Below are positions 24 through 60,461 of a stretch of 64,000 bases of DNA, piece after piece. The translations under genes and the position numbers were made by a program. Within the stretch, counting starts at the first letter, position 1, and every line of letters begins with the position of its first letter. The DNA is from Clostridia bacterium. GTDB taxonomy: Bacteria > Bacillota > Peptococcia > DRI-13 > UBA5745. The notes beneath the pieces are model-generated. The model searched no databases. It was given only the letters and a program-made list of their open reading frames with translations, and was not told where the DNA came from. The stretch covers positions 47 to 64,046 of the forward strand of contig JAHDMJ010000023.1 in the NCBI GenBank assembly GCA_018436095.1, read 5' to 3'.

Positions 24-287
24 TGTGCAAAATTGCAGCTTTGTAGTATGTGATTTGGCCTAAAAATAGGTTTTCACCCCATTTTCGGATCAAATTTGTT
101 CCAAAAGGAAGATTTACGGGTTACAAACCTGCATTTTTGCTCAGTTAGCCTATGCGAATGATAACAAACCTGCATTTTTGCTCAGTTAGCCCAAGCGAAC
201 GACGACAAACCTGCAATTTTGAGCAGTTAGCGCTGCAAAACAGTTTTAAAACGGTCAAAGTCAGCGCACAACCTCGTTTTTTGAGCA
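24..287. repeat. Dispersed repeat module A (converging array of ~21-bp motifs)
   Basis: TGTGCAAAATTGCAGCTTTGT at 24-44 (+); inverted copies at 123-143, 164-184, 205-225 (41-bp period, each followed by GTTAGC) and a variant at 268-287; may extend beyond the window start. Confidence 0.85.
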
Positions 288-358
288 GCCGGTTTTCAAC
301 CAACCACGGGCCCTCTTATTTTGCAGGACAGGATAAAATGCATCCGGTCCTTTACATT

Positions 359-3004
359 TTAAAGCCATTCTTTGTAGCGCTTAATATAGACGGTTTTGAT
401 AAGCTGGGCAGACAGAAAGTAGCCGGCCAGGATCAGCAGGAGCCAGGGTGCAAAAGAGGCAGGCAAAGGCATCATATCCAAGCCCACGGCAAAATCACTG
501 AATCCCATGATGAGTGCCGCTGCCGCTACAATCAGGGTGGAAAGCAATAAGGGGGCCGAAGGCCGGCCTTGCAGGAAGGGGATTTTCGCCGTGCGGATCA
601 TATAAATAACCAAGACCTGAGACACGGTGCCGAAAACAAACCAGCCGCATTGAAACAACGGAGCCAGCTCCGCCTTATTTGCGCCTACCACCCACCACAT
701 GACCGCAAAGCACAAAAGGTCAAAAACAGAGCTGAGGGGTCCCAGAAAGGCCATAAAAGTCTTAATTGATCCCGTTTCCCATTTCCGGGGTTTTTTAATG
801 TACTCCTTATCCACACTGTCAAAGGGTATGCTTAATTGGGAAAAATCGCAGAGCAAGTTTTGAGTGAGTATCTGCACCGGCAGCATAGGCAAAAAGGGTA
901 GAAAAATACTGGCGGCAATCACTGAGATAATGTTGCCGAAGTTGCCGCTGGCCGCCATTTTGATGTATTTAATGATATTGCCGAAGGTGCGGCGGCCTTC
1001 GATTACCCCTTCTTCCAGCACCATCAGATCCTTCTTCAGCAGAATAATATCGGCGGTTTCTTTGGCAATATCCACTGCGCTGTCTACGGAAATTCCCACA
1101 TCCGCCTGGCGCAGGGGCGGCGCGTCATTGATGCCGTCGCCCATATAACCTACGGTATGGCCTGCCTGCTGAAAGGCTTTGACCACCCGTTCCTTTTGGG
1201 AAGGCGACAATTTCGCAAATAAATCGCAGGTCCTGACCGCTTCCAGCAAGGCTTTATCATCCATGGCTTCCACGTCCCGGCCGGTCAGCAAATAGCCGGT
1301 ATTGACCCCAACCTTGCCGCAAACCTTGACGGCCACCCCTTCGCTGTCGCCGGTCAGCACCACTGTCCGTACCCCGTGTTCTTTCAGGGCAGCAATGGCG
1401 GCCTTGGCGCTTTCCTTGGGCGGGTCGAGAAAACCGATGAAACCGATTAAAACCACATCTTTTTCGTCGGCCACGCTAAAAACGCCGGTATCGGGCACGT
1501 GATTTTTTTGGGCCACGGCAATCATGCGCAGGCCCTCGTTGTTGTGAGCCTCATAGGTGGCCATGGCAATCCGCCGGGTTTCCTCATCCAGCGGTAAAAT
1601 CTGTCCGCCTATTTCCACAAAGGCTGAAATAGCCAGAATTTCCTCTACGGCGCCTTTGGTAATAAGCTGCCTTTTGCCGGACTTATCCGTTAGCACCACG
1701 CTCATACGGCGGCGGGAGAAATCAAAGGGTATTTCATCGATGAGGCTATAAGCCTGCAGAAGATCCTCAAGACCGTTTTCCGCCGCTCTGTTAATAATGG
1801 CAAGGTCGATCAGGTTTTTCAAACCCGTTTGAAAGTGGCTGTTCAGATAAGCGTGGCGCAGAATCCGGGTATCGTCTTCGCCGTGAAGATTCATGTATTT
1901 TTCCAGTACAATTTTGTCCTCGGTCAGCGTCCCGGTTTTATCGGTGCAGAGCACATCCATCTCCCCAAAGGTCTGAATGGCCCCCAGGGTACGGACAATG
2001 ACCTGGTGCTTAGCCATGGATACGGCGCCTTTGGCCAGCGTAGAGGTCATAATCACCGGCAGCATTTCCGGCGTCAGCCCCACGGCAATGCTGATGGCAA
2101 AAAGCAAAGCGCCGGCCCAGTCTCCTTTGGCCCAGCCATTAATCAGAAAGACCACGGGCACCATTACAAACATCATGCGGATCAGCAACCGGCTCACCGA
2201 ATCCACGCCCCGTTCAAAACTGGTTTTGGCCCTGTCGCCGGAGAGGGATTTGGCCATGGAGCCGAAGTGGGTGGCATTGCCGGTAGCCAGCACCAAGGCA
2301 GTGGCGCTGCCGCTGACGATATTGGAGCCCATAAAGCCGATGTGGTGCAGGTCCGTCAGACTATCTCCCTGCTGATTTTTTATATCGCTGAATTTCTCAA
2401 CGGGATTGGATTCGCCTGTAAGCGCCGCCTGGGCCACAAAGGTGTCCTTCGTCGTCAAAAAACGCACATCCGCAGGCAGCATATCACCGGCAGACAGGCG
2501 TACGATATCACCGGGCACCACTTCATCCATAGCAATTTCAACCAGCTTGCCATCCCGCCAGATATCAGCCTTATTAGAAATCATTTTGGCCAGTTTTTCA
2601 GCGGCGGCATTGGAGCGCTGGCCCTGTACGAAAGCCACCAGACTAGACAGAATCACCAGGGACAAAATAATCAGAATGGTAAAGTAGTCGGGTTTTGAAG
2701 AAAACACCACGTCCGTAAAATAAGTAATAGCGGCAATCAGCAGCAAAATCAGGTTAAAGGGGTTAATCACCGCTTCCCTTAACCTGTGCAGCACCGTCTC
2801 CTTATTTCCTATGGTAATTACGTTTTTGCCATACTCGTCCTGCCTGTCCGCCGCACCTTGGCTGGTTAAGCCTCCCGCATCCGCCGTCAGCCGGCTAAAC
2901 ACCTCCTCAATAGGTAAGAAAGCAAACAAACGGATCTTCTTTTCGCTGTCATGCTTATTTTTTTGGATCTGGCTGCTGTAATTTTTTTTGTTTAAGAACT
3001 TCAC
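359..3004 (-). CDS. mgtA: Magnesium-translocating P-type ATPase
   Basis: TGES, DKTGTLT, TGD, GDGIND motifs; PEMLP; KMAASGNFGN. Start moved to GTG at 3004 behind SD AAAGGA because the longer ORF runs through the leader region. Confidence 0.95.
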   Translation of the reverse strand: MKFLNKKNYSSQIQKNKHDSEKKIRLFAFLPIEEVFSRLTADAGGLTSQGAADRQDEYGKNVITIGNKETVLHRLREAVINPFNLILLLIAAITYFTDVVFSSKPDYFTILIILSLVILSSLVAFVQGQRSNAAAEKLAKMISNKADIWRDGKLVEIAMDEVVPGDIVRLSAGDMLPADVRFLTTKDTFVAQAALTGESNPVEKFSDIKNQQGDSLTDLHHIGFMGSNIVSGSATALVLATGNATHFGSMAKSLSGDRAKTSFERGVDSVSRLLIRMMFVMVPVVFLINGWAKGDWAGALLFAISIAVGLTPEMLPVIMTSTLAKGAVSMAKHQVIVRTLGAIQTFGEMDVLCTDKTGTLTEDKIVLEKYMNLHGEDDTRILRHAYLNSHFQTGLKNLIDLAIINRAAENGLEDLLQAYSLIDEIPFDFSRRRMSVVLTDKSGKRQLITKGAVEEILAISAFVEIGGQILPLDEETRRIAMATYEAHNNEGLRMIAVAQKNHVPDTGVFSVADEKDVVLIGFIGFLDPPKESAKAAIAALKEHGVRTVVLTGDSEGVAVKVCGKVGVNTGYLLTGRDVEAMDDKALLEAVRTCDLFAKLSPSQKERVVKAFQQAGHTVGYMGDGINDAPPLRQADVGISVDSAVDIAKETADIILLKKDLMVLEEGVIEGRRTFGNIIKYIKMAASGNFGNIISVIAASIFLPFLPMLPVQILTQNLLCDFSQLSIPFDSVDKEYIKKPRKWETGSIKTFMAFLGPLSSVFDLLCFAVMWWVVGANKAELAPLFQCGWFVFGTVSQVLVIYMIRTAKIPFLQGRPSAPLLLSTLIVAAAALIMGFSDFAVGLDMMPLPASFAPWLLLILAGYFLSAQLIKTVYIKRYKEWL

Positions 3005-3055
3005 TGGAATCATTCCTTTCTGTTGGGATTCCCCGGCGAAACGGCAAAAAGGCAT

Positions 3056-3082
3056 AAAAAAATGCCGTCCCAACAGACGGCA
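3056..3082 (-). terminator. Intrinsic terminator/attenuator in the mgtA leader
   Basis: Minus strand TGCCGTC-TGTTGG-GACGGCA followed by T7, between the leader ORF and the mgtA start. Confidence 0.8.
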
Positions 3083-3104
3083 AAAATATAGGCAGATTAA
3101 GCCA

Positions 3105-3215
3105 TTAGCATAAAAGCGCAATGGAAAACAGCCCGCAATAAGTGCCGACACATTGGTTACCCGTTTTACTCTGGGGTGTGGGTTCATAAAAAAGACTTCG
3201 AGGGTTGCCGTCCAT
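3105..3215 (-). CDS. Putative mgtA leader peptide, 36 aa (MDGNPRSLFYEPTPQSKTGNQCVGTYCGLFSIALLC)
   Basis: ATG at 3215 preceded by SD-like GAAAGGAAGTGA; TAA at 3105-3107; directly upstream of the terminator; below the ORF-track length cut-off. Confidence 0.65.
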   Translation of the reverse strand: MDGNPRSLFYEPTPQSKTGNQCVGTYCGLFSIALLC

Positions 3216-3264
3216 TGGCTCACTTCCTTTCGCTAATATCTATTATGCCAATCTATGCTTTATC

Positions 3265-3459
3265 TTATGCCAAAACATCCAGCTTGTGCCCAAAAGAAGG
3301 GAGCGGTGTGGGTACAGCCGATTCCAGGCTTTCAATCAGGTTGGCAGCCATGGTCTCCTGCAAATCCATAACTTTTTTTGTCATGGCAATATCTACCGCT
3401 GCGGCAGTCTTGCCCAGGCTCATCCCTATGCTGGCGGCTGCAATAGCTTCTATCTCCAT
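3265..3459 (-). CDS. YjfB-family small protein (putative motility protein)
   Basis: MEIEAIAAASIGMS...AVDIAMTKKVMDLQE...FGHKLDVLA pattern; SD AAGGTGA before ATG at 3459. Confidence 0.75.
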   Translation of the reverse strand: MEIEAIAAASIGMSLGKTAAAVDIAMTKKVMDLQETMAANLIESLESAVPTPLPSFGHKLDVLA

Positions 3460-3665
3460 AAAATCACCTTTTTCCTCATAAATCTCTAAAAACCACTCTG
3501 CCAAAATTATACTATGCTTTGCTATAAGAATGCAAGCCCGGGGAGACGATATATATCAGGACAAGAGTATTATCCTGATATCCGGCTCAGGCCAAGCCCA
3601 TGAGCAATCGGTGAACATCGAGGGAGGGAATCCGGAGAAAAGGCCATGTCGGCTATAGCCAAGGA

Positions 3666-3704
3666 TTCGCAGAGATGAAAATCGAGGATTTTCATCTCTG
3701 CGAA
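3666..3704. repeat. Perfect 18-bp inverted repeat upstream of the methyltransferase gene
   Basis: TTCGCAGAGATGAAAATC-gag-GATTTTCATCTCTGCGAA, immediately before TTGACA (3708-3713). Confidence 0.85.
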
Positions 3705-3764
3705 ATCTTGACATATCCTTAAAAGGATGGTATTGATGGATAGGAAAGGGGTGCAGCCAACAAA

Positions 3765-4769
3765 GTGATAGAAAAAAGACAACGGGCAGAGCGCAATAGA
3801 ACTATCGTTTTGGCTCCTGAGGAAGAGCAGTTGTATTTAAGCCGCTGCCTTGCTGAAGAAGCAATGACCTCAAGCAGCAACATTGCCAAAGATGGAAGTA
3901 TTGCCGGGGTCAGCGGTATCCTTGATCAGGTCATTTACGGCGATTGTTTTAAAGCCCTCTCCCGGCTGCCAAGCCAATTCGTGGATCTGCTGATTGTGGA
4001 CCCGCCCTACAATCTGGATAAAACCTTCAGCACCAGTAAGTTTCGGAAAATGGCCGCCGCCGATTACGAGGCCTTTACCCGGCAATGGTTGAACAGCCTT
4101 GTTCATACACTGAAAGACACAGCCTCCATCTATGTATGCTGTGATTGGAAAAGCAGCCTGATTATCGGCCCTGTCCTCAGCGATTTTTTTCTTGTGCAAA
4201 ACCGTATCACCTGGCAGCGGGAGAAAGGCCGGGGCTCTTTGTCTAACTGGAAAAATGCCATGGAGGACATCTGGTTTGCAACGGTATCCAAAAAATATAC
4301 CTTTAATGCGGAAGCCGTTAAACAGCGCCGGAAGGTCATAGCTCCTTACCGTATTAACGGCCAGCCGAAGGATTGGCAGGAAACGGCAGAGGGCAAATAC
4401 CGGGACACCTACCCCTCTAATTTCTGGGAGGATATTTCTATTCCTTATTGGTCCATGGCAGAAAACACCGATCATCCTACGCAAAAGCCGGAAAAGCTTT
4501 ATGCCAAGCTGATCCTGGCTAGTTCAAATAAAGATGGTATGATCCTCGACCCTTTTGCCGGCGTGGGCACAGCCTGCGTTGTGGCCAAGAAGCTGGGCCG
4601 GCATTATATCGGCATCGAAAAAGAGTCTCAATACTGTGCTTTGGCGGCAAAAAGGCTGGAAATGGCAGAGAAGGATGCCTCCATTCAAGGCTACGCCAAT
4701 AATGTTTTTTGGGACCGCAATTCTCTGGCAGAACAGAAGAAAGAGGCTAAACGGCCCTCTTGCCATTAA
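3765..4769 (+). CDS. Orphan N4/N6 DNA methyltransferase (beta class)
   Basis: DPPY catalytic motif precedes HPTQKP and DPFAGVG SAM-binding motif; no restriction endonuclease gene adjacent. Confidence 0.9.
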   Translation: MIEKRQRAERNRTIVLAPEEEQLYLSRCLAEEAMTSSSNIAKDGSIAGVSGILDQVIYGDCFKALSRLPSQFVDLLIVDPPYNLDKTFSTSKFRKMAAADYEAFTRQWLNSLVHTLKDTASIYVCCDWKSSLIIGPVLSDFFLVQNRITWQREKGRGSLSNWKNAMEDIWFATVSKKYTFNAEAVKQRRKVIAPYRINGQPKDWQETAEGKYRDTYPSNFWEDISIPYWSMAENTDHPTQKPEKLYAKLILASSNKDGMILDPFAGVGTACVVAKKLGRHYIGIEKESQYCALAAKRLEMAEKDASIQGYANNVFWDRNSLAEQKKEAKRPSCH

Positions 4770-4803
4770 GCTTCGTTCTACCCGCAACTCATTTTAAGAA
4801 AGC

Positions 4804-4841
4804 AGCAAGCCCTGGGATTAATCCTATGGGCTTGTTTTTTT
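4804..4841 (+). terminator. Intrinsic terminator after the methyltransferase gene
   Basis: CAAGCCC...GGGCTTG stem followed by a T-run. Confidence 0.7.
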
Positions 4842-4886
4842 GTTTTTATATTAGAGGTTAAGCTTATATAGCTTTATTTATGCATT

Positions 4887-4915
4887 ACACTTATCTACCC
4901 GTCCATGCATATGCT
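4887..4915 (+). promoter_or_regulatory. Putative sigma-K (mother-cell) promoter
   Basis: AC-17 bp-CATATGCT matches the AC-N16/17-CATANNNT consensus, upstream of a spore-surface-type gene. Confidence 0.55.
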
Positions 4916-4960
4916 GGAATGGGTTACTATTATCAATTAATTTAGAAGGAACGTGATATA

Positions 4961-7054
4961 GTGAATGATTTTGAAACCGACAAAAAAAGGCTAACCGCCT
5001 CGCAACATCCCCTTTACGCTGATAATAACCGATCCTGTTATGGAAAACCACCCTCCTGCCGTCCACCCTGCCCTCCCGATCCCTCTTGCTCTTTATGCCC
5101 TCCGGGGCCCCGGGGTCCAAGGGGCCCGAAAGGCGACCCCGGCTGCCCGGGACCGCCGGGTCCAAGGGGTCCCCAAGGCGCTCCCGGTCCTCAAGGTCCA
5201 ATAGGGCCTCAAGGGCCCCAGGGACCTCAAGGACCTCAAGGAATAGCAGGTCCTCCCGGCGCAACTGGAGTTACCGGAGCTACCGGTGCAACGGGTGCAA
5301 CCGGCCCCGCCGGACCTGCCGGTGCAACAGGGGCAACCGGGCCTGCCGGACCCGCCGGAGCAACAGGGGCAACCGGACCTGCCGGACCTGCCGGAGCTAC
5401 CGGTGCAACAGGGGCAACCGGACCTGCCGGAGCTACCGGTGCAACAGGGGCAACCGGACCTGCCGGAGCTACCGGTGCAACAGGGGCAACCGGTCCCACT
5501 GGCGCAACGGGTGCTGACGGAGCAACCGGTCCCACTGGTCCTACTGGCGCAACGGGTGCTGATGGGGCAACCGGCCCAACTGGCCCCACTGGCGCAACAG
5601 GCCCCACTGGCGCAACCGGCCCTACCGGCCCCACAGGGCCAACGGGAGTATTCGAGCCTGACCAATTCCTATTTAATGTTATTGGAGAAACCGGTAGTGC
5701 AACAGTTGGGCTCGGAGAAAATCTTATTTTTGAATCCTCTACGCTGGATATAACGGTTACGCCGGGTTCTGCAATAGTAACGATTGAAGACCCTAACCCG
5801 ACAGGTCCTACCGGCCCCACTGGTCCTACTGGCGCAACCGGTGCTGACGGAGCAACCGGCCCCACTGGCCCTACCGGCGCAACCGGTGCTGACGGAGCAA
5901 CCGGCCCCACTGGCCCTACCGGTGCAACAGGCGCTGACGGTCCTACCGGCCCCACTGGTCCTACTGGCGCAACAGGCGCTGACGGGGCAACCGGACCCAC
6001 TGGTCCTACCGGCGCAACGGGCGCTGACGGGGCAACCGGACCCACTGGTCCTACCGGCGCAACAGGCGCTGACGGGGCAACCGGCCCCGCTGGCCCTACC
6101 GGCGCAACAGGCGCTGATGGGGCAACCGGCCCCACTGGCCTTACCGGTGCAACAGGCGCTGACGGAGCAACCGGCCCCACTGGTCCTACCGGCGCAACAG
6201 GCGCTGACGGGGCAACCGGCCCCACCGGCCCCACTGGCGCTGACGGGGCAACTGGTCCCACTGGTCCTACCGGCGCAACGGGTGCTGATGGGGTAACCGG
6301 CCCCACCGGCCCTACCGGCGCAACGGGTGCTGATGGGGTAACCGGCCCCACTGGCCCTACCGGCGCAACGGGCGCTGACGGGGCAACTGGTCCCACCGGC
6401 CCTACCGGCGCAACGGGCGCTGACGGAGCAACCGGCCCCACTGGTCCTACCGGCGCAACGGGCGCTGACGGAGCAACCGGTCCCACTGGTCCTACTGGCG
6501 CAACGGGCGCTGACGGAGCAACCGGTCCCACTGGTCCTACTGGCGCAACGGGTCCTACCGGCCCCACTGGCGCAGATGGCATAGATGGCGCAACTGGCCC
6601 TACCGGACCCACCGGTCCCACTGGCCCCGAAGCAATACTGGCTTATGGTGGTCTATACAATGATACGACCCAGCTCATTACCATTCCTGCGGACGGTGAG
6701 GAAACCGTTGCGCTGCCAGAAAGTATGGCAAATACTAACGTGGCGTTAGGGACTGACAGTATCACTATTAATATTGCCGGAGACTACCGTGTGGAATATT
6801 TTATTCAGCTACAGTCCACCAGTGGTGATTTCGGCTTGCTTGCCGGTGTACAAATCAATGGGTTGTTTTTGCAGTCATCTTTGATTAGTACTATCGTATT
6901 AACCTCTGCTTTTGAGACGGTCACGCTCAGCGGTATTGTTCCCTTAGCCGCAGGCGATGTGCTAACCTTAGTATTGTCAAGCCTTACCGGAGGAAGTGTT
7001 TTGTTTGGCGGAGGTACAAGTGCCAACCTGAGCGTAATGAGGTTAGGCACCTGA
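4961..7054 (+). CDS. Collagen-like (BclA-type) exosporium glycoprotein
   Basis: Cys/Pro-rich N-terminus, two long Gly-X-Y tracts ([12 protein letters not shown]) split by a ~50-aa globular linker, C-terminal beta-rich domain (AYGGLYN...ANLSVMRL); no signal peptide. Confidence 0.88.
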
Positions 7055-7241
7055 TCTTTCCTTTCCTAAAACAACCGGGCCTGCCGGGCCTTAAGGTTTG
7101 GCAGCATAGGGCAGTTTTTGCAACGACGCGGTCCAAACCATTATGCTTGCTATGGGCGGCAGCCTTTTGTTTGGTCCCGGTTTAAATGCCAACTTGAAGG
7201 TTACGCAGATAAGCAACTAATTCCGGCGCCTAAACAATGAT

Positions 7242-7543: not shown

Positions 7544-9325
7544 CTAGATTGAAAACCCCTCCGCCGCTATGGACGCCATATCAGGGACTTTGCCGCGTGG
7601 CTCCGGCAAAGCCCTCGATACGGGTCTGAGGGGGGTTTTCTTATCTCCTAAACGGAATCGGGAAACCAGGGTTTGCATTTGACTGGACTGCCTGCTCAAA
7701 ATCTCGCTGGAAGCTGCGCTCTCCTGAGCAGTAGCTGAATTTTGCTGTACAATTTCCGCCAACTGGCTGATGCCCAAATGGATATGGTTGATTACTGTGC
7801 TCTGTTCCTGAGAGGCGGCAGGGATCTCTCCGACAATCTTGCTGCTCTCGTTTATACCCTCTACAATGCCGCTAAAAGAAGCGGCGGTCTCTTGAGCAAT
7901 TTGTACGCCCAGCTTTGATTTACCCAAAGAATTCTCAACTAACTGCCGGATGTTTTCGGCAGCCTCCGCACTTTGCAGGGCCAGGCTGCGCACTTCATCG
8001 GCCACCACCGCAAAGCCTTTACCTTGCTGGCCGGCCCGGGCAGCTTCAATGGAGGCATTCAATGCTAAAATGTTGGTTTGGAAAGCAATATCCTGGGTCA
8101 CTTTAATAACCTTATGAATTGAATGGCCGGCCTGCTCAATATCTTGTACGGCTTGTATCATTCGCTTCATCTGCCGGGAGCCCATTTCCGCACTATCCCT
8201 GATAGCGTGGGCCACCGTTGCTGCCTGCTCCGCCAACTCTGCATTATGCTTCGTCTTTTCCGCCACTTGGGAAATCTCAGCAGAAAGCTCCTCAATCCCG
8301 GAAGACTGCTCCACTGAGCTATGGGCCAATATCTGAGCTCCATTGGCGATTTGTGCAGCCCCTAAGGATACCTGGTCGGCACTCCAGCGGATTTGAGCCA
8401 ACATGGCGCTAAGAGTTTCAATGGTGCTCTGCATGGCAATGCCCATAGAATCCTTCTCGCTTCGAGGGGTCACATGAACGGTCAGATCGCCGCCGGCAAT
8501 AGTCCCCAAGGTATGGATTTGGTTTTGAGTGCTTTCCACCATTTGCTGAAAGGCGTTGGTCAGCGCACCGATTTCATCCTCAAAGTCACTGGTTAATTTA
8601 ATCTCCATGTCGCCCCGGGCAATCTGCTCCGAAGCGCCGATCAGCTTGCCAATAGGCCGGCCAATGATACGGCGGGTCAGCAATATTGAAAACATACAGT
8701 AAATGACCGTGGTGCCCAGGCCAATTGCCAGGAGAATAGCGGCAAAGCCATTGCTGTTGCGCAGCACGCCGTCTACCCCCAAATCAACGCCCACAACGCC
8801 AATTACTTTTTTATCGGCGTCCAGAATGGGCGAAAATCCGGAGACCATATAGCCAAAACCTTCCGAATCATAAATAGAGGTAAATGAAGGAAGGCCGTTG
8901 CCGATGGTTTCAAACATCTCGTCGGCAAATGCGCTGGCCGGCTCTTGTGCCAATAAACCCAGGGCCTCTTCTCCGGGAGTGTCAGCGTCGGCAAAGTAAT
9001 AAACGCTCTGGTCGTAGCGGCTGTCCAAAACATAAAGGTAGGTAACTCCCGCGGAGGCCGCGGTTTCACTGACGAATCCTTGTACCCTGTGCCAATAATC
9101 ATTTTCCTTGCCGGCCTCTAAAATCAGGGCAAACTGCTCTTCATCGATACCGGCAGCTACCGTATCGGCAATGGTCATGGCCCGCTGGGCACTGGCTTCA
9201 ATAGAGTTCATCCGAAAGAATATATAGCTGAATATACCCATAAACATCGTGCTAAACAATGCAATAGCAATGGCCATACAGGAAATTTTACCCGTAATAC
9301 TTTTCAAAAAACCATTCTTTTTCAT
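7544..9325 (-). CDS. Methyl-accepting chemotaxis protein
   Basis: Two TM helices, HAMP, hairpin tip [34 protein letters not shown]. Confidence 0.95.
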
Positions 9326-12198: not shown

Positions 12199-12220
12199 AG
12201 CTTTTTAAGGCTATGGTCTA

Positions 12221-25865: not shown

Positions 25866-26106
25866 TGAGCAAAATTGCAAGTTTGTCATCCTATTGGCCC
25901 CCAAATGTGCAAAATTGCAAGTTTGTACCATGCAAACAGTGTTTTTGGCCCATTTTTCTTCTGAAAGTGACTAAGAAATGGGTTTTCATGCAACAAACAC
26001 ATCTTAACCTGCATATCCCGAATAAAAATACGGCAGTCGTCCCTACAAAGCTGCAATTTTGCACAGTTAGCTACATCAAACAGCAACAAAGCTGCAATTT
26101 TGCACA
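25866..26106. repeat. Dispersed repeat module B
   Basis: + copies at 25866-25886 and 25906-25926; inverted copies at 26045-26065 and 26086-26106, identical to the motif at 24-44. Confidence 0.88.
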
Positions 26107-26153
26107 AAAATGCCGCTAGGGAGAACCTGCCCCATTGGAGGATCACTACCGTC

Positions 26154-26199
26154 CTGCCCAAGTGAGGCTCACTGCCCAAGTGAGGCTCACTGTCCAAGT
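26154..26199. repeat. 18-bp tandem repeat (~2.5 copies)
   Basis: CTGCCCAAGTGAGGCTCA x2 plus CTGTCCAAGT. Confidence 0.85.
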
Positions 26200-26353
26200 A
26201 GACGGTCACATTCAACTCTTCTCCTAAGAAATTAAACAGAAATGTTGAAGATAATTGTCATAAATTGATACTATTACTTTACTATTTATGCTATTTATTA
26301 TATTATAAAAATCGAAAGTATATTTTCAAGAATAAAATTGCGGAGGGATCCGG

Positions 26354-28300
26354 ATGCTACAGCTCATCAGAAAATCCATCAAGGTTCAGGTCACGCTTCT
26401 TTTTGCCATTATCTTTATATTTAACGCCATCGCTGTAGCAGTTTTACTTAGCGGCTGGTCCCACAACAGGGAATGTGCCGCCGACCTGGAGCATAAGCTT
26501 GATCAAAGCCGGCAGATATCCGCCATCACCACAGCCCATACGGACTGGGTGGACGATTTAAGGCTTCATTTGCAGAAAGGCCAGGATTTCACCGGCAGCC
26601 TTAATCCCGATACCTGTTCCTTCGGCCAATGGGTCAGCACCTTAGACGAAGATTTAGCCAAGGATTCCATTATCGCCGGAGCCATAGAAAGCATCATGGA
26701 GCCCCACCGGCTAATCCACTCCCGGGCCCAAGAGGTTATGGATCTCAAGAAAAGCAGTTCCAAAGCAGCCATGGATGTTTTTCAGAGTTCAATTCTGCCC
26801 AACGTCCTGACCATCATCCAGGGGCTTAACACCATCGCCGACCGGTGCAACACTTTAGCTGTTGAGAGCATGAGCATCTCCGCTGCGACCCTTCAATTCA
26901 ATTCCATTGTCCAGCTTGTTATCATCGTTCTGGTTTTGCTGATATCCGTGGTCATAGCCTTTTTCATTATCAGCATAACCGTCAAGCCGGCCATCATGAT
27001 CACCGGCGCAGCAGAAAAGCTGGCTAAAGGCGATTTGGATGCTGAAATTCACATTAAAGGCCACAACGAAATGGCCAGAATGGCCGCCGCCCTTAATGCC
27101 GCCATCAGCTTAATCGGCCGCTATATTCAGGATATCTCTCATAAGCTGGAGCTGATGTCCCAGGGCGATATGCGCATCAACGTGGATATCGATTACATCG
27201 GCGATTTTGCCGCCATCAAAGAGGCTATGATTAATACCAGCGCCGCCCTCAATCACACCTTGCTGACCATCAATTCCGCCGCCCAGCAAGTCAGTCTTGG
27301 CGCCGATCAAGTCTCCGGCGGCGCTCAGGCTTTAGCATCGGGCTCCAGCGAGCAGGCTTCCTCTGTGGAAGAGCTTAGTGCCTCCATTACCATGATTGCG
27401 GGGCAGGCTGAGGAAAACTCCGCCAACGTCAAAATGGCGGCCAGCTATGTAGAGCAGGCTGTGGCAGGCGTAGGCGCCGGCAATGAGCATATGGCCCAGC
27501 TAACGGCGGCAATGGAAGATATCCGCACTGCCTCCGCCCAGATAAACAATATTACGAAGGTCATCGAAGACATCGCTTTCCAGACAAATATTCTGGCCTT
27601 AAACGCCGCTATTGAGGCTGCCCGGGCCGGCAATGCCGGCAAAGGTTTTGCCGTGGTGGCCGACGAGGTGCGCAATTTGGCGGCAAAATCCGGGGAAGCA
27701 GCCAAACAGACTGCAGCCCTAATCCAGGCCTCCGTGGCCACCGTAGGCAAGGGCAACCAGACAACTGCACAAACGGCGGAGATTCTGAAGGATGTCGGTA
27801 TCAAAGCAAAAATGGTCAACGAAAGCATCATAAAGATCAATGAATCCTCCAGTATGCAAGCCGGTGCCATCGAGCAGATCAAAGACGGCCTTACTCAGGT
27901 TTCTGCCGTAGTGCAGAAAAATGCCGCCACCGCCGAAGAAAACTCCGCTATCAGTGAGGAAATGTCAGGCCAGGCCGCCACACTGCGGGGAGAGGTGGCC
28001 AAGTTCCAGCTTGATCACCAATATCAGGTCAATACTCAATATCAGGCCGCTACTCAACATCAGGCTAATGTTCAACATCAGGTGAATACCCGATATCAGA
28101 TGAATACCAATTACGAAGCCAAGCTGGATTTGCCGGCGGGGGCAGGAGCAGACTATAAGGCAGAAGCAGGCTTTGTTCCGGCGGGACAAGACGACTTTGT
28201 AGAATCAGACCATACTCCAGCCGACTTTGCATCAACAGACCTGACACCGGCAGAATCAACGGCCACCAATCTGGACCTGCCACCGCTAAATCTCTCCTAA
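26354..28300 (+). CDS. Methyl-accepting chemotaxis protein with CZB zinc-binding sensor domain
   Basis: TM1, AHTDW...CSFGQW...HRLIH (CZB His/Cys ligands), TM2, [24 protein letters not shown] tip; low-complexity C-terminal tail. Confidence 0.92.
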
Positions 28301-28356
28301 TCTTTACCTTACAATGTTATTTAGTTGGGGGCATAATCGTAACCCTTGGGCGAATC

Positions 28357-28567
28357 TGCTCAATTTTTTCGCTTGTATGTGGTTCAAGGCTTCTTCCTGT
28401 TCAATTTTTTCGTTTGTAGGTGAATTGCAGAGGCCATTAAGTGAAATTCTGGCCGGTTTTGTTCAATTTTTACGGTTGTCCGTAAATATTCGGTTGCATT
28501 TCACATACAAACGTAATTTTTGCTCAGCTAACCTGGGGCAATCGATCACAATCGCAATTTTTGCACC
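28357..28567. repeat. Dispersed repeat module C
   Basis: + copies at 28357, 28398, 28460 (TGYTCAATTTTTWCGnTTGT; spacings 41 and 62); inverted copies at 28507-28526 and 28548-28567 (spacing 41). Confidence 0.75.
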
Positions 28568-28625
28568 CCTGGCCGGGGTCACTGCCGCCCCGACAGCGCC
28601 TCCAAAGATTCATCCCATTACTTTC

Positions 28626-28771: not shown

Positions 28772-29092
28772 GATATTATAAATAGTATTAAATCCTATTG
28801 TCGATACTAATACTCTGTAACCCTAAAAGTTTACATCGGCTTGCCTATTTTCCACAATACATCCGCGCCCTTAGTATCTTAGGATAGCGGATACATCTGT
28901 GCCCAATATCTAAGGATAGCGAATTGTATCCGCAGGATTGGGTTTACAGAACCGGCGTTGAGGCTCTCGCCATAGCTACCGGCCATGCCTCACTTCTCCG
29001 CCTTGCACCTGGAAAAATATTCGGCGCATCCATGACAACTTTTAGGAGTCACCAAGTACTACAATAGGGCCAAAAAACGCCGGGGAGGTTAT

Positions 29093-47978: not shown

Positions 47979-47987
47979 ATAAAGCAA

Positions 47988-48085
47988 GTCAATATCTGCT
48001 CCCTACGTTGGCATTACCCACATCAGGTTTAAGGGTCGAAGCTTTTCGCTTCCTCTCAGCCCGTCTCACGAGCTCCCCTGATTCT
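47988..48085 (-). ncRNA. TPP riboswitch
   Basis: Minus strand CAGGGGAGC...GGCTGAGA...GACCCTTAAACCTGATGTGGGTAATGCCAACGTAGGGA upstream of cytX-thiMED. Confidence 0.95.
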
Positions 48086-48156
48086 TTTTTACGCCCTTAA
48101 CCGCTATCGTTTCGGTTGCGGCGCTTCGTTATTATACTGCAATTCTTTTCCCTTTG

Positions 48157-51717: not shown

Positions 51718-51843
51718 TGAATGTCCTTATTAAATTGTACATTTCAATTCTGCGATTAGGTCTGCTTCCCCGACTTTTTCAATGAGCCCGGTTTGTCGAG
51801 GGCTTAATACGGTTATTTTTTAGTCCTTTTTTGCCTCGCCTTC

Positions 51844-54208: not shown

Positions 54209-54211
54209 CGC

Positions 54212-54436
54212 CTATCCCCTCCCCTGTACGTTGAAAAGAGCATCAATAGCCTTTGTAATCAAGATGTTGGGCGAGGGAATTGAGATTTGCAAACTGTCGA
54301 GGATCAAGATGATGAAGCTGATAAGCATAATCACCGTATAAATCCTTTTTATCCCTTTCTCTGCCTGCTTTAAAGCCGTTTTGTAATCATAAATTATCAC
54401 CGTCAGGAATAAGAACAAGATTATGGCCGTCAGCAT
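54212..54436 (-). CDS. Small two-TM germination receptor D-type subunit
   Basis: 74 aa, two TM helices, IPSP motif, inside the ger operon. Confidence 0.7.
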   Translation of the reverse strand: MLTAIILFLFLTVIIYDYKTALKQAEKGIKRIYTVIMLISFIILILDSLQISIPSPNILITKAIDALFNVQGRG

Positions 54437-54449
54437 TTTGCCCTCCTGA

Positions 54450-55586: not shown

Positions 55587-57132
55587 TATTGCCACCTCCC
55601 TGCTGCCTGACTTCGTTTTCACTCAGCTCTTCGGGGCGTTCAATCATATCAGGCCAGGGAGAGCGGATGAAAATATCCTTGTTTTTTTGGAAGCTGAAGC
55701 TGCCCTCCAAGGATAGGTGGTCTACGCCAAAAGATTTCAGGTTGTTGAGGTGAATGAACAGCAGGGAAAGGCCTATGGTCAGGCCAAAGAAGCCGAAGCT
55801 TGAAGCCAGCAGCAGCAATAGCAGCCGCCAGAAAATAATTGGCGCATTCAACTTCGGCACCAAAAGGCTGGTAATGCCTGTAGCCGCCACCATGATGATC
55901 ATCGGCGCCGCCACCAGGCTGGCCTCAACGGCGGCCTGGCCGATAACCAGAGCCCCCACAATGCTTAAAGCCTGGCCGATATTGGAGGGCATGCGGACAC
56001 CTGTTTCCCGTAAAATGTCAAAAACGATCAGCATGATTACAGCCTCCACAGCAGCAGGCAAAGGCACGTTTTGGCGTTCCAGGGCAATCCTCATCAATAG
56101 CTGCAAAGGCAATATCTCCTGATGGAAGGCCACTACGGCGATATACAGTCCCGGCACCGCCAGAGTCAAAAAGAAACCCATAATACGCAGCATTCTGGAA
56201 AAGGAAGAATAATAGAAGTTAAAGTAATAGTCCTCATTGACTTGAAAATTTTCAATAAAAAGATAAGGCACAGTCAGAGCTACGGGGGTGTTGTCCACCA
56301 AAACAGCAATGCGGCCTTCCAGAAGCTTAGCCAGCACAACATCAGGCCGTTCGGTGCTGCCTACGGTACGAAAAGGCGAATTAGGAAAGTCGTGGATCTG
56401 CTCGGTGATATAGTTGGAATCCAGTATCCCGTCAATATCGATTTTGTTTAGCCGCCGCAAAAGTTCCTCTAAAACGTCCTTGTTCACCAAGCTGTCGAGA
56501 TAGCAAATACAAACCGTAGTTTGGGTGCGTTTGCCCAAAGTCATGGTTTTCGTTTTTAATTCATTTGTACGGGCTCGCCGCAGGATTTGGGAAAGGTTCT
56601 GAATCAGGGATTCCGTAAAGCCGTCCCGGGGGCCGCTGAGAACTTTTTCATTATCCGGCTCCGCTATGGAGCGAACGGCAAACTGCTTCGTATTTAAAAC
56701 GGCGGCCTGATCACAGCCCTCTACGAAAAGCACGGTATCGCCGTGGGTCACACTTTCAATCAGGGCTTTAAAGGTGTTGATTTTTTTTGATTCCCCCACC
56801 TGTACTACAGTGGCCAGCAGGCTTTCCAGCAGCGGTTCGCCCCCCTCCGGCCTTTTGGTCATCAGGGGCTCCACAATATTGTTGTTGACAATTTCCGAAT
56901 GGACTACGCCGTCAATAAAGATCAGGAAATAACGGATAGGGTCTTTCCCCGGACTTTGAATCATCTTATATTGGACAATATCCACGTTGTTAAACAGCTT
57001 TTTAATCACTGCAACATTTTCGTCCAATGACCGGCTGAATTTATGCTCTTCAAGAGGATAGTTCAAGCGGGCAATTTTTTCATCAAGATCCGTAGCTTTT
57101 CCGGCGCACAATTTTTTCAAAAACCGCAGCAT
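55579..57132 (-). CDS. gerKA: Spore germination receptor A subunit
   Basis: GPRDGFTE, TERPD, LEGRIA, RMPSNIGQALSIVGALVIGQAAV. Confidence 0.92.
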   Translation of the reverse strand: MLRFLKKLCAGKATDLDEKIARLNYPLEEHKFSRSLDENVAVIKKLFNNVDIVQYKMIQSPGKDPIRYFLIFIDGVVHSEIVNNNIVEPLMTKRPEGGEPLLESLLATVVQVGESKKINTFKALIESVTHGDTVLFVEGCDQAAVLNTKQFAVRSIAEPDNEKVLSGPRDGFTESLIQNLSQILRRARTNELKTKTMTLGKRTQTTVCICYLDSLVNKDVLEELLRRLNKIDIDGILDSNYITEQIHDFPNSPFRTVGSTERPDVVLAKLLEGRIAVLVDNTPVALTVPYLFIENFQVNEDYYFNFYYSSFSRMLRIMGFFLTLAVPGLYIAVVAFHQEILPLQLLMRIALERQNVPLPAAVEAVIMLIVFDILRETGVRMPSNIGQALSIVGALVIGQAAVEASLVAAPMIIMVAATGITSLLVPKLNAPIIFWRLLLLLLASSFGFFGLTIGLSLLFIHLNNLKSFGVDHLSLEGSFSFQKNKDIFIRSPWPDMIERPEELSENEVRQQGGGNNG

Positions 57133-57162
57133 AGCTTCTCCTTTGATGAGCAGTATTCTTTT

Positions 57163-57191
57163 TAGTATAAAAAAAGCAGGGATTTTTATGC
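57163..57191 (-). promoter_or_regulatory. Putative sigma-G promoter overlapping the pil-cluster terminator
   Basis: GCATA-17 bp-TATACTA on the minus strand, overlapping the AGCAGGGAT...ATCCCTGCT-T7 hairpin. Confidence 0.55.
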
Positions 57192-57297
57192 ATCCCTGCT
57201 AATGTAAACACCATTTCCGCTGAATCAACATGGTCATTGAACAAGCAATTCAAGAAAGGATTGATCGTATGAGCCGAACTGAGCTTGTGATTGTGTC

Positions 57298-57849
57298 TTA
57301 AAGCTTCTCGTAAAGAAGCAGTGTCAGCCGTACCGAAACAGGCTGGGCGGCAATATCCCCCTGAGGTGAGGCGGCAGCTGGCTGAACAGTGATGTTTTGC
57401 AGCTCGCAGCGGTAAGGAAAGTCATATAAGGCGCTTAGAATTTCCTTGGCCTGGGCGTAGCTTTCTGCGGCAAAAGTCAGCTCAACGCTCCGTTGGGCCA
57501 GATGTTCATCTAAACGCGGCTGAACAAAGGTTAGCCCATAGTCCCGGGCATTAAGTAAAATGCTGTCAAACTCCAGCATAACCAGATTGATATTATCGTA
57601 TTCCGGCACGGCTACAGGACGAAAATCCGGTGAAAGCTCCGCTTCCTTCAGGGCCTTTTCCATCTGCCGCAACCGGATCAACTGGGACTGTCCAAGGGCC
57701 AGTTCCTCTTCGGCAATGACCAGCCGCTGCTGGGCTGCCGCAAGCCGGCGCCCTACAGGCAGGTAAAAAAACTGCATATAGGATACGGCAACCAGCAGGA
57801 ATATCAATAGAATAAGCAGTACTCTTTCGCGTTTTGATAGCTTTCTCAT
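57298..57849 (-). CDS. pilO: Type IV pilus PilO-like protein
   Basis: LSKRERVLL N-terminal TM, coiled coil, SYAQAKEIL; follows pilM/pilN. Confidence 0.65.
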   Translation of the reverse strand: MRKLSKRERVLLILLIFLLVAVSYMQFFYLPVGRRLAAAQQRLVIAEEELALGQSQLIRLRQMEKALKEAELSPDFRPVAVPEYDNINLVMLEFDSILLNARDYGLTFVQPRLDEHLAQRSVELTFAAESYAQAKEILSALYDFPYRCELQNITVQPAAASPQGDIAAQPVSVRLTLLLYEKL

Positions 57850-58472
57850 GATTTCTGATCCTCCCCGGCTGCCGTCGTCGGAGCTTGGTCTGCGTCGCCT
57901 CCGGCTATTTGGCCTTCCCGGCTGCCGGGAACCGCCAAAGTAATGGTCATGGCGGCAGTAGCCCGCTTATCGGCCTTTTGCCCGGCGGCGGCATTATATA
58001 TCTGTACAGCGTCCACCAGCTCCCTGGCCATCAGCCGCTGGTAAATGCCAGACATCTCATTTAATGTTACCCCGGCCAGCCGCACCGTAATCTGCTGCTC
58101 ACTTATGGTAAAAGAATGGACCTGAGCCCAAGGCAAAAGCTCCTCTTCAATGAGCTTAAAGCAGTCCATAACATTCACCTTGCCGGATAAAGCGGGCTGG
58201 GTTTGCTGCTCAATTTCATAAGTCTCCCGAAGCGGGGCCAAATCCTTTAACGCTTCACGGGTTTTCTGCAGCAAAGCCTCCTGCTGCAGAGCCTGAGCCT
58301 CTGTTTTCTGGGTCAGCCGCCAGGGATCGGCAATGTTCAGCTTTACCAGCACCAGCAGCATCAGCAGAGCCGCCGGCACAAACAGGGTATTGCGGCTGAA
58401 TCGATAGGATTTTTTTGCCCGTTGAGCTAAATTGATGGCGGTCTTAGCAGTGATATCTTTTGCTTCTGCCAT
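57846..58472 (-). CDS. pilN: Type IV pilus PilN-like protein
   Basis: INL motif, TM, coiled coil; directly after pilM. Confidence 0.65.
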   Translation of the reverse strand: MAEAKDITAKTAINLAQRAKKSYRFSRNTLFVPAALLMLLVLVKLNIADPWRLTQKTEAQALQQEALLQKTREALKDLAPLRETYEIEQQTQPALSGKVNVMDCFKLIEEELLPWAQVHSFTISEQQITVRLAGVTLNEMSGIYQRLMARELVDAVQIYNAAAGQKADKRATAAMTITLAVPGSREGQIAGGDADQAPTTAAGEDQKS

Positions 58473-58479
58473 TTTCCTT

Positions 58480-59430
58480 CTACCTCCCCATTAATTCCAG
58501 AGCCGCACCCACAGCCGTACCGTAGCGCCTCTCCCGGCCGATAGCCGGCATTAAATCATCCAGCGTATGAATGTGCAGAGGGATATTATTCCGGATGATT
58601 TCCGCCAATACCGGGTTGGCCGTGACGCCCGCCGTCAGATAGACATCCTGCAGGTCGGAGTCCGGCGTATTAAAGCCATAAAAATTGATGGAACGCAAAC
58701 TTTCAATGGCAATGGTGCTGCAGAGCTCCCGCAAGGGTTCCTCCTCAGGCCCTCCGTCAGCCTTCCGGGGCACTTCCGCCAGCTGCCGGCCCCCCAGTTC
58801 AATAACCTGGGTAGTCTCATATACGCTGCTGCGATACATATGCACCCGGGTGGCGCTGTCGCCCAGGTCGATGATGCAGTATTCTGCCGGCTGGCTCTGG
58901 GGATTATCCTTTTCGTAGAAGCGAATCAAATTGCGGTAGGTCAGGTATTCCGGCACCGCCACAGCAAGCTTCAACCCTGCTTTAGCCAGGGCGGTACGGC
59001 ACTGGGCAATGGTCTCCCTGGCTGCCACGGCAGCCAAGAACTGCATTTGTACCGGCTTGCCCTCCTGATCGTTGATTTGCCTCACAAAAGCATAGTCGAA
59101 GAAGTAGTTATCCTGGTTACCCTTGATATAGTCCTGAAACTCATAGGGCAGATTAAGCTGCAACTGCTTTTCCGTCATCCAGGGCAGGGTGATGGAGCGC
59201 ACAAAGGCAGTCTGCAGAGGCAAAACCAGGGCGCAGTGGCGCTGGGTAATCCGCTCCCGTTTAAGCAGAGCCCGCAGCTCTTTAGCCAGGGCATCAGGCA
59301 GGATTTCCTTCGCCTGCTGCTGGGCAGCAGGGATATCCAGGGCAGCCAGCCGTTCTACCGCCCCATCCTTCACCAGAGCCAGACGGATCGCAGCGGAACC
59401 GATATCTATGCCGAGATAAGTGTGTGCCAT
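58480..59430 (-). CDS. pilM: Type IV pilus assembly protein PilM
   Basis: LGIDIGSAAIR, LPWMTEKQL..NLPYEF, IIDLGDSAT actin-like motifs. Confidence 0.85.
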   Translation of the reverse strand: MAHTYLGIDIGSAAIRLALVKDGAVERLAALDIPAAQQQAKEILPDALAKELRALLKRERITQRHCALVLPLQTAFVRSITLPWMTEKQLQLNLPYEFQDYIKGNQDNYFFDYAFVRQINDQEGKPVQMQFLAAVAARETIAQCRTALAKAGLKLAVAVPEYLTYRNLIRFYEKDNPQSQPAEYCIIDLGDSATRVHMYRSSVYETTQVIELGGRQLAEVPRKADGGPEEEPLRELCSTIAIESLRSINFYGFNTPDSDLQDVYLTAGVTANPVLAEIIRNNIPLHIHTLDDLMPAIGRERRYGTAVGAALELMGR

Positions 59431-59482
59431 ATTTCCTCCACTTTTATAAACGATTACGCAAATATTTCCGGCTAGGCATGAC

Positions 59483-59529
59483 CCAAGCAAGCTCCCGGCT
59501 TGGGCCAAGCAAGCTCCCGGCTTGGGCCA
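59483..59529. repeat. Tandem repeat of a small hairpin unit (~22 bp)
   Basis: CCAAGCAAGCTCCCGGCTTGGG x2. Confidence 0.8.
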
Positions 59530-59618
59530 TGCCCGGCGACGGCACATCGACCGGTCAAGCCGTATGCGGCGGCCCTTGAAAAGCCTTTAGGCCTATGCGG
59601 CCTGCCCAGCCGGCATTT

Positions 59619-60461
59619 TGCTCAAAATTGCAGGTTTGCAGAAGGAATGAAAAATTTGCCTTAGTCTCAGCCGGGTGTACAAAATTTGAAGTATTATGTG
59701 GTTTGCTTTGTTGAAATAGGTATTTCAATCCTACTCATACACTAAATGCAGGTAAAGGACGGTGCGCAGGGCGGCAAAAATTGAAATTCCGAGCAGTTAG
59801 CTGAGGCAAATACACATAATACCTGGTTTTTTGTACAACGGCTGGATGGGAAGCGACTTTTTCAGTGCCCTCGGTTTGTTGAAGGTACTGCAAAAGCCGG
59901 ACAAGCTGACCTTCGTGGGGCTGAAATCGGATTCACTGTTGCCAACTGCACAAAAATCGAAGTTGTGTGACGGCAAGCAGGGGGTTTTCCCTGTTTTCGG
60001 TTCCAGATGCACAAAAATTGAGGTTGTGTGACGATTATAGGGCAGTTCTTAGTAATCTGAGCCCATTTGAAGGACATGGTGCAGCACAACTTCGCTTCTT
60101 GTGCAGTTAGCCTCTGCTTTTAGCCTAAATTTGATGTCCGCTGCAACACAACTTCGATTTTTGAGCACCCCGCCCGATTTGCCGGTCAAGTTTTCTCAGT
60201 GCTCTTGGTTTGTTGAAGGCACTGAAAAACCGGGCAAGCTAACCTTCGTGGAGCTAAAATGTACAAAATTTGAGGTTTTATGTTTATTTGCCATGGCTAG
60301 CTGTACAAAATCTTCAGTTTTATGTTGGTAAGCACTGTTTTCTCTGTATTTAGTGTCAACGATAATTTGAATCCACTATCTTAAAGGAGGCACCCACCCA
60401 AAACCTCAAATTTTGTACAGGCGGCTGGATGGGAAGCGACTTTTTCAGTGTCCTCGGTTTG
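59619..60461. repeat. Composite array of repeat modules D, E, F separated by a conserved linker
   Basis: + motifs start at 59619, 59676, 59947, 60008, 60260, 60302; inverted motifs end at 59795, 59837, 60105, 60167, 60419; linker starts (CAGTG) at 59863, 60197, 60446. Confidence 0.85.

Follow-up and report, generated by a model that had tools for sequence, protein, structure and literature searches.

I describe here a family of converging repeat arrays that was noticed in a 64,000-nucleotide stretch of DNA (the window) from a Clostridia bacterium. The window covers positions 47 to 64,046 of contig JAHDMJ010000023.1 (C12:47-64046) in assembly GCA_018436095.1 (G000), which comprises 3.7 Mb in 38 contigs and is 98.5% complete. 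The reading that I favor, with moderate confidence, is that each locus of the family is a non-autonomous foldback element whose arms are helically phased arrays of binding sites for a putative trans-acting protein. The anatomy of these elements and the phasing of their sites are established, as are their restriction to one genus, the differential amplification of their subfamilies, the gains at orthologous sites, and the changes of their arms by whole units.

Scale, phasing and anatomy of the modules

A preliminary description, made from the letters of the window alone, had found about 25 copies of a short motif at four intergenic loci. These 25 copies were used to seed a position weight matrix (PWM) of 32 nt, which was refined in three rounds and then scanned across the genome at a cut-off score of at least 12. 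It was found that G000 has 978 copies, as compared with 9 in the reversed (not complemented) genome. The copies form 262 clusters and 229 converging modules, so the family is by no means confined to the four loci. The commonest strand patterns of the clusters are +-, ++--, +--, ++-, ++---, and +++---, and the median distance between the outermost sites of a module is 214 bp (229 modules). Multi-copy clusters occupy 58,379 bp, or 1.6% of the genome. Many contigs of G000 terminate inside arrays, and therefore the family also limits the assembly; in practical terms, these repeats break short-read assemblies of the genus.

As shown by the scan, 291 of the 435 adjacent same-strand pairs are spaced at 40-42 bp and 66 at 61-62 bp. 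The distance between the innermost + and - copies peaks at 90, 110-113, 130-133, 151-153, and 172-175 bp, giving a lattice with a step of about 20.7 bp, and further peaks at 140 and 184-186 bp belong to other subfamilies. Thus, the near-helical phasing first seen in the window holds throughout the genome, and the spacings are not random. The period of an arm amounts to 4 or 6 turns of the helix, which places every site of that arm on the same face of the DNA.

The description of the site rests on 938 copies (iteration 2 of the matrix). The information is concentrated in 21 positions, TGnnCAAAAwTnnArGTTkkT. Their head is TG, and the inverted repeat within them is weak, A/T-rich, and just 4-5 bp long (CAAA..TTTG). 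In one arm type, a weaker GCTAAC immediately precedes them. A module consists of a left (L) arm and a right (R) arm facing each other across a conserved palindromic core, which measures about 90 bp but has other lengths in other subfamilies. The units of an arm, 1 to 6 in number, follow one another head to tail; they are 41 bp long (62 bp in one subfamily), and every unit has one 21-bp site. By all-against-all grouping, 156 of the 229 modules fall into one large family whose members are about 76-83% identical to a reference copy, and further groups have 18, 12, and 7 modules. When 14 of the 99 members matching the reference were oriented and aligned, a fixed polarity emerged: the L-arm unit is TGAGCAAAATTGCAGGTTTGT-CATCGTTCGCATAG-GCTAAC, the R-arm units carry a different spacer, and the conserved core contains the palindrome GGCCCGAAAATGGGGT..ACCCTATTTTCGGGCC.

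The subfamilies are distinguished by how long the unit is and by the variable middle part of the site. Type 1 has the site ..AATTGCAGGTTTGT and a 41-bp unit, type 2 has ..AAATCGAGGTTGTG and a 61/62-bp unit, and type 3 has ..(A/T)7 CGGTTGTG and a 41-bp unit; the site of what is called here the D/F type, after two modules of the window, is ..AATTTGAGGTTTTATGT. The two arms of one module share a subtype, as had been proposed: of 23 positions, 5.2 differ between its L and R sites, 4.7 between neighboring sites within an arm, and 7.5 between sites taken from different modules. On the other hand, the sequence between the sites, which had been taken to be unconserved, is kept within an arm type (e.g., ..CATCGTTCGCATAG-GCTAAC) and is unconserved only between subfamilies.

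A helical register kept this strictly, while the rest of the sequence is unrelated between subfamilies, would be the signature of a cooperative DNA-binding machine. The binding of a protein, and likewise the chemistry of insertion, I infer. A sequence-specific trans-acting protein would bind one site per subunit or dimer and polymerize along each arm. It would then pair both arms, as transposases do with subterminal site arrays, and the paired-arm complex may have mediated the spread of the element into intergenic DNA without target-site duplication.

Where do the modules lie with respect to genes? Of the 978 copies, 205 overlap crude open reading frame (ORF) calls, which cover 88% of the genome and include spurious ORFs over the modules. 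Modules are somewhat enriched between convergent genes (58 of 207, vs 271 of 1,712 intergenic regions longer than 50 bp), and their polarity is not tied to gene direction (34 vs 23 in tandem contexts). They are spread through the genome with a mean gap of 14 kb and a coefficient of variation (CV) of 0.83.

It was also considered whether the modules are structured-RNA genes or cis-elements, such as a small RNA, a terminator/attenuator, or a CRISPR-like array. They can fold into long hairpins, and many of them lie at the 3′ ends of genes. However, the orientation of the modules is random relative to the flanking genes, and no Rfam family (Rfam 15) matches the modules with a meaningful E-value, the sole match in the window being a TPP (thiamine pyrophosphate) riboswitch elsewhere. 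In 20 of the 57 cores with an inner distance of 109-113 (those with enough 7-mers in common with a reference to be aligned), the core and arm pairs are invariant or have one-sided changes, with almost no compensatory ones. In the mosaic of three window modules described below (D to F), nothing promoter-like was found, and the two terminator-like sites do not exceed the number in shuffled controls. As for a CRISPR-like array, the spacers are conserved between modules, the arrays converge, and there are 229 loci. An RNA function thus seems very improbable. A decayed repeat-protein gene was ruled out because the periods of 41 and 62 are not multiples of 3 and a repeat protein could not be encoded in a single frame. 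A sigma-54 promoter and boxes for Spo0A, CodY, and ComK were considered by inspection, against their consensus sequences, and rejected; either the spacing does not fit or the match is not common to all subtypes.

Distribution and turnover within one genus

Is the family found in other bacteria? When an exact two-site pattern was searched in 185,579 species genomes, only one other genome was matched, a metagenome-assembled genome named 'Clostridiales bacterium' with 24 loci. The closer comparison used 88 genomes of the class, among which G005 and G004 are congeners of G000; the flanking DNA of G005 is about 92-95% identical to that of G000. A subtype-neutral two-site pattern occurs in 3 of the 88 genomes, with 86 matches in G000, 75 in G005, and 9 in G004, and three other congeners without it are genomes of only 80-85% completeness. 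The type-1 17-mer (at most 1 mismatch) was counted in 41 relatives, giving 318 in G000, 273 in G005, 2 in G004, and none in the other 38, and G004 carries about 97 type-3 sites. These counts across the class and by subtype indicate that the family is confined to one genus and that its subfamilies have been expanded differently by species.

Twelve G005 modules have syntenic flanks in G000. Nine of these sites are filled in both genomes, one module is truncated in G000, and for two, the intergenic DNA around them is replaced in G000. Among the filled pairs, the gap lengths often differ by near-whole units (+40 and +82 bp, or about one and two 41-bp units). Module B of the window (25866-26106) is also present in G005 at the orthologous site, where it is shorter by one 41-bp unit than in G000.

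Two loci of the window also differ from the congeners. The orthologous spacer of G005 and that of G004 both lack the 286-nt segment carrying module C (28301-28586), and the segment is therefore most simply a gain; no target duplication was found at the borders of this segment. The second is a mosaic of 1,097 nt (59460-60556), which extends from the stop codon of a prepilin peptidase gene to the start codon of pilM and contains modules D, E, and F with three copies of a hairpin element. In G004, the two genes are only about 5 nt apart. On this comparison of sequences, the two loci are gains relative to a congener, without target duplication. The 1.1 kb of stacked repeats at the prepilin peptidase-pilM junction raises the question of how pilM and the downstream genes are expressed.

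The contigs of four metagenome runs contain related strains, in which modules B and C are present (the module C segment in strains X4 and X8), and no ongoing movement is evident in these contigs. Apparent joints within module B in the related-strain contigs were rejected as cross-mapping of other modules, the short sides being 21-25 nt. As judged from these comparisons, the family is now largely static and changes mainly by the gain or loss of whole units.

Changes of the arms in whole units also suit another explanation, in which the modules are by-products of hairpin or slippage dynamics of DNA (palindrome amplification and gene conversion between dispersed copies) with no dedicated binding protein. 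The whole module is a long imperfect palindrome, and the searches of G000 did not find a cognate protein. However, such dynamics explain the changes in unit number and not the modules at new loci. They leave unexplained why a 21-bp block is kept across subfamilies with unrelated spacers and cores, and why the 62-bp unit keeps the same helical phase. I regard this explanation as decidedly unlikely.

The stability of the modules bears on a third explanation, which I consider somewhat unlikely and with which a mobile origin is compatible. The modules may be platforms that the host maintains, by selection rather than transposition, for a nucleoid-associated or domesticated DNA-binding protein, serving chromosome structure or the insulation of transcription units. 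They would resemble REP/BIME sequences, short repeats of bacteria that bind IHF, gyrase, and Pol I. The spread of the modules through the genome, their enrichment between convergent genes, and the 9 of 12 syntenic sites filled in both G000 and G005 are in favor of such platforms, as is the presence of modules in related strains; the strict same-face phasing would suit cooperative binding. In seven well-aligned G000/G005 pairs, the site and the core have diverged less (4.6%, 36/790, and 4.3%, 24/558, respectively) than the spacers (8.8%, 33/377) and the flanks (7.9%, 243/3,084). Two misaligned pairs with unequal arm numbers were dropped post hoc from this test, and with all nine pairs the values are 7.7% for the site, 14.7% for the core, 18.0% for the spacers, and 7.9% for the flanks. 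Since the site positions were ascertained by the PWM, the low divergence of the site is only a hint of constraint, and the test covers seven modules. Against host platforms, the family is absent from 85 of the 88 class genomes (the three congeners of 80-85% completeness among them), and any host function must therefore be dispensable and young. Furthermore, the dominant subfamily differs between species, and the 1.1-kb pile-up in the pilD-pilM junction resembles tolerated junk rather than a placed element.

Search for a partner and comparison with known systems

A trans-acting protein of the kind proposed for the foldback elements might be encoded by a gene flanked by the arrays. I searched for seven Pfam families of transposases and recombinases (PF01797, PF00665, PF01609, PF07282, PF00872, PF00239, and PF00589). 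None of them matches the contig of the window, in agreement with the earlier remark that no transposase is in the window. In G000, PF00665, PF01609, PF07282, and PF00872 have one match each, PF00239 has three, and PF00589 has five. The only rve gene belongs to an IS3-type orfAB at C38:226 kb and has no array within 10 kb, and the solo TnpB gene lies between cysS and ispF. The PF00239 matches are at C1:27117, C1:46631, and C34:244596, and the arrays nearest to the two C1 matches are 2.6 and 4 kb away. The check suggested at the outset, for an HUH/RAYT transposase or a recombinase flanked by the motif, thus gave none in G000.

Several results weigh against the foldback-element reading. First, Y1/RAYT (PF01797) has no match in G000, whereas control genomes were positive, and the rve, DDE_Tnp_1, TnpB, serine recombinase, and tyrosine recombinase genes of G000 are not bracketed by arrays. 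Second, nowhere in G000 do a + array and a - array enclose a gene in the configuration of an element; there are only three cases of a + array followed by a - array more than 300 bp away, and all three enclose ordinary genes. The 15 module-bracketed genes of G000 subjected to a Pfam scan are housekeeping genes or have no match; the two without a match look like a membrane thioredoxin-like protein and a spurious ORF. Third, a target duplication was sought in 144 modules at all offsets and at lengths of 3-9 bp, and none was found above a shuffled-pair control, the only excess being artefacts of the internal palindrome. Fourth, the 12 syntenic G005/G000 comparisons gave no clean excision footprint or filled/empty junction, and 3 of the 12 sites are truncated or replaced with no simple filled/empty pattern. 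The comparison of filled and empty sites thus supplied gains relative to congeners and neither a duplication nor a clean junction. Fifth, there is no sign of current activity, because G000 and G005 have most modules in common and related strains also possess modules B and C. Finally, a copy is defined only by its PWM match, and the conservation of the motif is therefore partly an artefact of ascertainment.

The search for an autonomous copy was extended to other sequences. No array-flanked autonomous element was found in 24 G005 loci, in a search of G004 and G005 that was non-exhaustive. In viral contigs, one pattern gave 0 loci and another gave 7 single chance matches without arrays, and no array-flanked gene was found. 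A metagenome scan with an overly loose pattern gave at least 116 loci; of the 80 scanned (L068-L147), none has an autonomous element, and two or three copies that look genuine are present in about 3. The type-1-like array of G004 (C33), which is unique, proved to be an ordinary module. The same contig ends, beside a 5-unit module, in a long GC-rich repeat with a period of about 18-21 bp (GCGCCAGTGCCCGCGCCTGC...; 5880-6149 of locus L067).

The only transposase gene that touches an array in G000 is of the insertion sequence (IS) family IS256 (Mutator-like, PF00872; C17:1-1337), and its copies are collapsed in the assembly. The element has its own inverted repeats (GGTTATGTCCGTATAATGGTGTAAATT and a partner), which are unrelated to the 21-bp site. 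Its four assembled junctions (C17, C4:141, C20:141, and C35:141; loci L042-L045) are all inside modules, and the C20/C17 pair of junctions shows an 8-bp duplication, AGTTAGCC. For these reasons, the IS256-like element is an insertion into the modules. As it is the sole IS family whose ends abut arrays, nothing indicates that a known IS has the modules for its ends. G005 also has the IS256-like end, at 17 nt from an array. An IS3-like element of G005 that carries a fused OrfAB of 507 amino acids (L011, 222-1960) is located within the arm of a module, between the two identical copies of a 24-nt direct repeat of the site. At the right end of this element, the last 9 nt resemble the start of the 21-bp site. 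The IS3-like element was examined as an autonomous partner, together with the rve genes of five congeners, and rejected, since it is not bounded by converging arrays; in G000, it persists only as a remnant. The modules look like a preferred or tolerated landing place for other insertion sequences of the IS256-like and IS3-like kinds.

A further repeat family of G000, about 390-470 nt in length and with roughly 30 copies, contains the same site (e.g., C13:1-390, C20:65296-65652, and C5:73295-73650). It contains a + site, then 185 nt of core and two - sites, followed by a tail of about 135 nt whose bordering sequence is similar to the inverted repeat of the IS3-like element. Two copies lie directly 3′ of tRNA genes, many contigs end in this family, and it has no Rfam match.

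In genomic behavior, the closest analogue is repetitive extragenic palindromic (REP) elements, together with REPINs and bacterial interspersed mosaic elements (BIMEs), which work with RAYT proteins. In the literature on them (PMC3116915, PMC3337134, PMC3333891, PMC2817692), a BIME consists of regularly spaced REPs in alternating orientation (PMC2817692). A REP unit is given as an imperfect palindrome of 20-40 nt with a conserved GTAG or CGTC head in PMC3733652, and REPs are described as insertion targets for IS elements in PMC1525189. The modules share with these the high copy number, the intergenic position, the lineage-specific distribution of short repeats, the inverted fold-back pairs, the clustering in mosaics with other small motifs, and the lack of a target duplication. 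They are likewise IS targets (for the IS256-like and IS3-like elements). However, G000 lacks a Y1/RAYT gene (PF01797), and the 21-bp site does not have the form of a G+C-rich palindrome bearing a GTAG or CGTC tag. Instead of single or alternating REPs, blocks of one orientation converge with a strict period of 41 or 62 bp, and the modules have an L/R polarity and a conserved core. The preliminary description had left a choice between phased binding sites and a REPIN/BIME-like non-autonomous element mobilized in trans. A combination of both, phased sites forming a non-autonomous element mobilized in trans, fits because of the high copy number, the one-genus restriction, the differential amplification of subfamilies, the orthologous gains, and the strict phasing. 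REPIN/BIME in the proper sense does not, because there is no Y1/RAYT gene and the arms are direct tandem arrays rather than alternating REPs.

In function, the closest documented mechanism is the filament of the IS607 family. According to PMC6188088, helically phased subterminal direct repeats at IS607-family ends nucleate a filament of the serine transposase TnpA, and no target duplication is made; the 9-bp motifs follow one another at 10-11 bp and are found no farther than about 60 bp from either end of a gene-carrying 2-kb element. Several phased short direct repeats, the absence of classical terminal inverted repeats, and the absence of a target duplication are common to both. By likeness to these ends, where many dimers bind cooperatively into a filament that captures the other end (PMC6188088), the same may be supposed for the modules. 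In contrast to IS607 ends, the modules have 21-bp sites 41 or 62 bp apart in gene-less elements, and none of the three serine-recombinase genes of G000 is bracketed by arrays as an IS607-type transposase between phased ends would be. Thus, membership of IS607 and of REP/REPIN/BIME each fails on a defining feature.

Other systems resemble the modules in part. Eukaryotic Foldback, MULE, and hAT elements have long inverted arms of tandem sub-repeats, a variable unit number, and a variable middle, and their copies are mostly non-autonomous. The modules likewise have inverted arms of tandem units, their middle and the number of units in an arm vary, and no autonomous copy was found; however, those elements are eukaryotic and make target duplications, which were not found here. 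The sole Mutator-like (IS256-family) transposase of G000 has unrelated inverted repeats and sits in the modules as an insertion. Subterminal repeats of MULE and hAT elements are mentioned in PMC5499845 and PMC6188088. Classical bacterial miniature inverted-repeat transposable elements (MITEs) are similar in their small size (the median of the modules is about 214 bp), inverted ends, intergenic position, and many copies and subfamilies. Unlike them, the modules lack a fixed terminal inverted repeat accompanied by a target duplication, and the searches gave no autonomous IS related to them. The ends of Tn7, Mu, Tn552, and IS21 have multiple transposase-binding sites, flank gene-carrying elements of several kilobases, and give duplications whose length varies with the element from 4 to 8 bp. 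Several sites of about 20-22 bp per end, inverted ends, and a 5′-TG at the start of each site are also features of the modules; in contrast, no duplication was found, and the only rve gene of G000 is the IS3-type one far from any array.

A bolder version of the foldback-element reading can be put forward tentatively, although I think it fairly unlikely. The modules might be the RAYT-independent counterpart of REPINs: a single-copy protein outside the seven Pfam families searched would read the site, form filaments on the arrays, and pair the arms of the approximately 230 modules. It would have spread them and would now use them as a chromosome-wide platform, and the modules would be safe-haven targets for IS256- and IS3-type elements. 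A repeat density of about 1,000 sites, or 1.6% of the genome, is rarely tolerated in bacteria. The well-understood cases are REP/REPIN with RAYT and MITEs with a parent IS, and neither partner was found here. Identifying the protein would define either a new mode of DNA mobilization or a new mode of nucleoid organization, and would also explain why other insertion sequences home to the modules. Literature searches, in which ISfinder entries were not among the sources compared, gave no description of the family.

The six modules of the window and their surroundings

All of the 25 copies first reported in the window were found again on re-reading, and they form six modules (A to F), in each of which the + copies lead and the - copies follow. 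A 17-mer consensus (at most 3 mismatches) has 11 matches in the window as compared with 1.18 expected, and none of 100 shuffles reaches 11. The identical copies reported 26 kb apart were also confirmed, in the form of a perfect 24-mer common to two window loci at that distance. The reported same-strand spacings hold and are given here with each module; all sites are 21-nt spans.

Module A (24-287) is of type 1 in flipped polarity, with a + site at 24-44 and - sites at 123-143, 164-184, 205-225, and 267-287 (spacings of 41/41/62). It has a palindromic core between the arms, and an extra + copy lies on the contig 12 nt before the start of the window. Module B (25866-26106), also of type 1, has + sites at 25866-25886 and 25906-25926 and - sites at 26045-26065 and 26086-26106 (40/41). 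Module C (28357-28568) is of type 3, with + sites at 28357-28377, 28398-28418, and 28460-28480 and - sites at 28508-28528 and 28548-28568 (41/62/40).

The other three modules lie in the mosaic at 59460-60556. Module D (59619-59836) is composite; it has a type-1 + site at 59619-59639, a + site of the D/F type at 59676-59696, and - sites at 59775-59795 and 59816-59836 (57 and 41). From reading the sequence, the exceptional spacing of 57 bp probably arises because a type-1 copy adjoins a module of the D/F type. Module E (59946-60167) is of type 2 with a 62-bp unit, its + sites being at 59946-59966 and 60008-60028 and its - sites at 60085-60105 and 60147-60167 (62/62). Module F (60260-60419) is of the D/F type, with + sites at 60260-60280 and 60302-60322, which are 42 bp apart, and a - site at 60399-60419.

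The hairpin element of the mosaic (CGGCTGGATGGGAAGCGACTTTTTCAGTGCC...GGTACTG...) lies at 59839-59927 on the + strand and abuts the modules. More copies are at 60192-60260 and 60422-60462, a related piece is at 51771-51802, and the element is enriched in the flanks of modules across G000. Another small motif, GG(T/C)CACTGCC, is 20- to 40-fold enriched within 120 nt outside modules throughout the genome; at 26130-26200 of the window, it appears as tandem gaggctcactgcccaagt repeats, and one such motif also ends the gained segment with module C.

A classical MITE of about 247 nt is present at 28805-29056, with the inverted ends TGTAACCCTAAAAGTTTACA.../...TGACAACTTTTAGGAGTCA and a 5-bp duplication, TACTA. 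It is cleanly skipped in the contigs of three related-strain runs and is absent from G004, and parts of it are multi-copy in G005. The array modules behave unlike this MITE, with its 5-bp duplication and its clean absence in related strains.

The genes around the modules of the window are ordinary ones, encoding a P-type ATPase, a nucleotidyl transferase, a chemoreceptor, a DUF1538 protein, PilM, and the prepilin peptidase. The TPP riboswitch lies at 47983-48089 on the - strand (Rfam RF00059, 64.8 bits). A gene at 4961-7054 has a long repeat with a 9-bp period (collagen-like, G-x-y), which appeared as 84 overlapping copies in the repeat search. An inverted match of 71% over 155 nt between 7955-8109 and 27552-27706 is explained by two paralogous chemoreceptor genes, and the chemoreceptor signaling domain is also multi-copy in G004 and G005.

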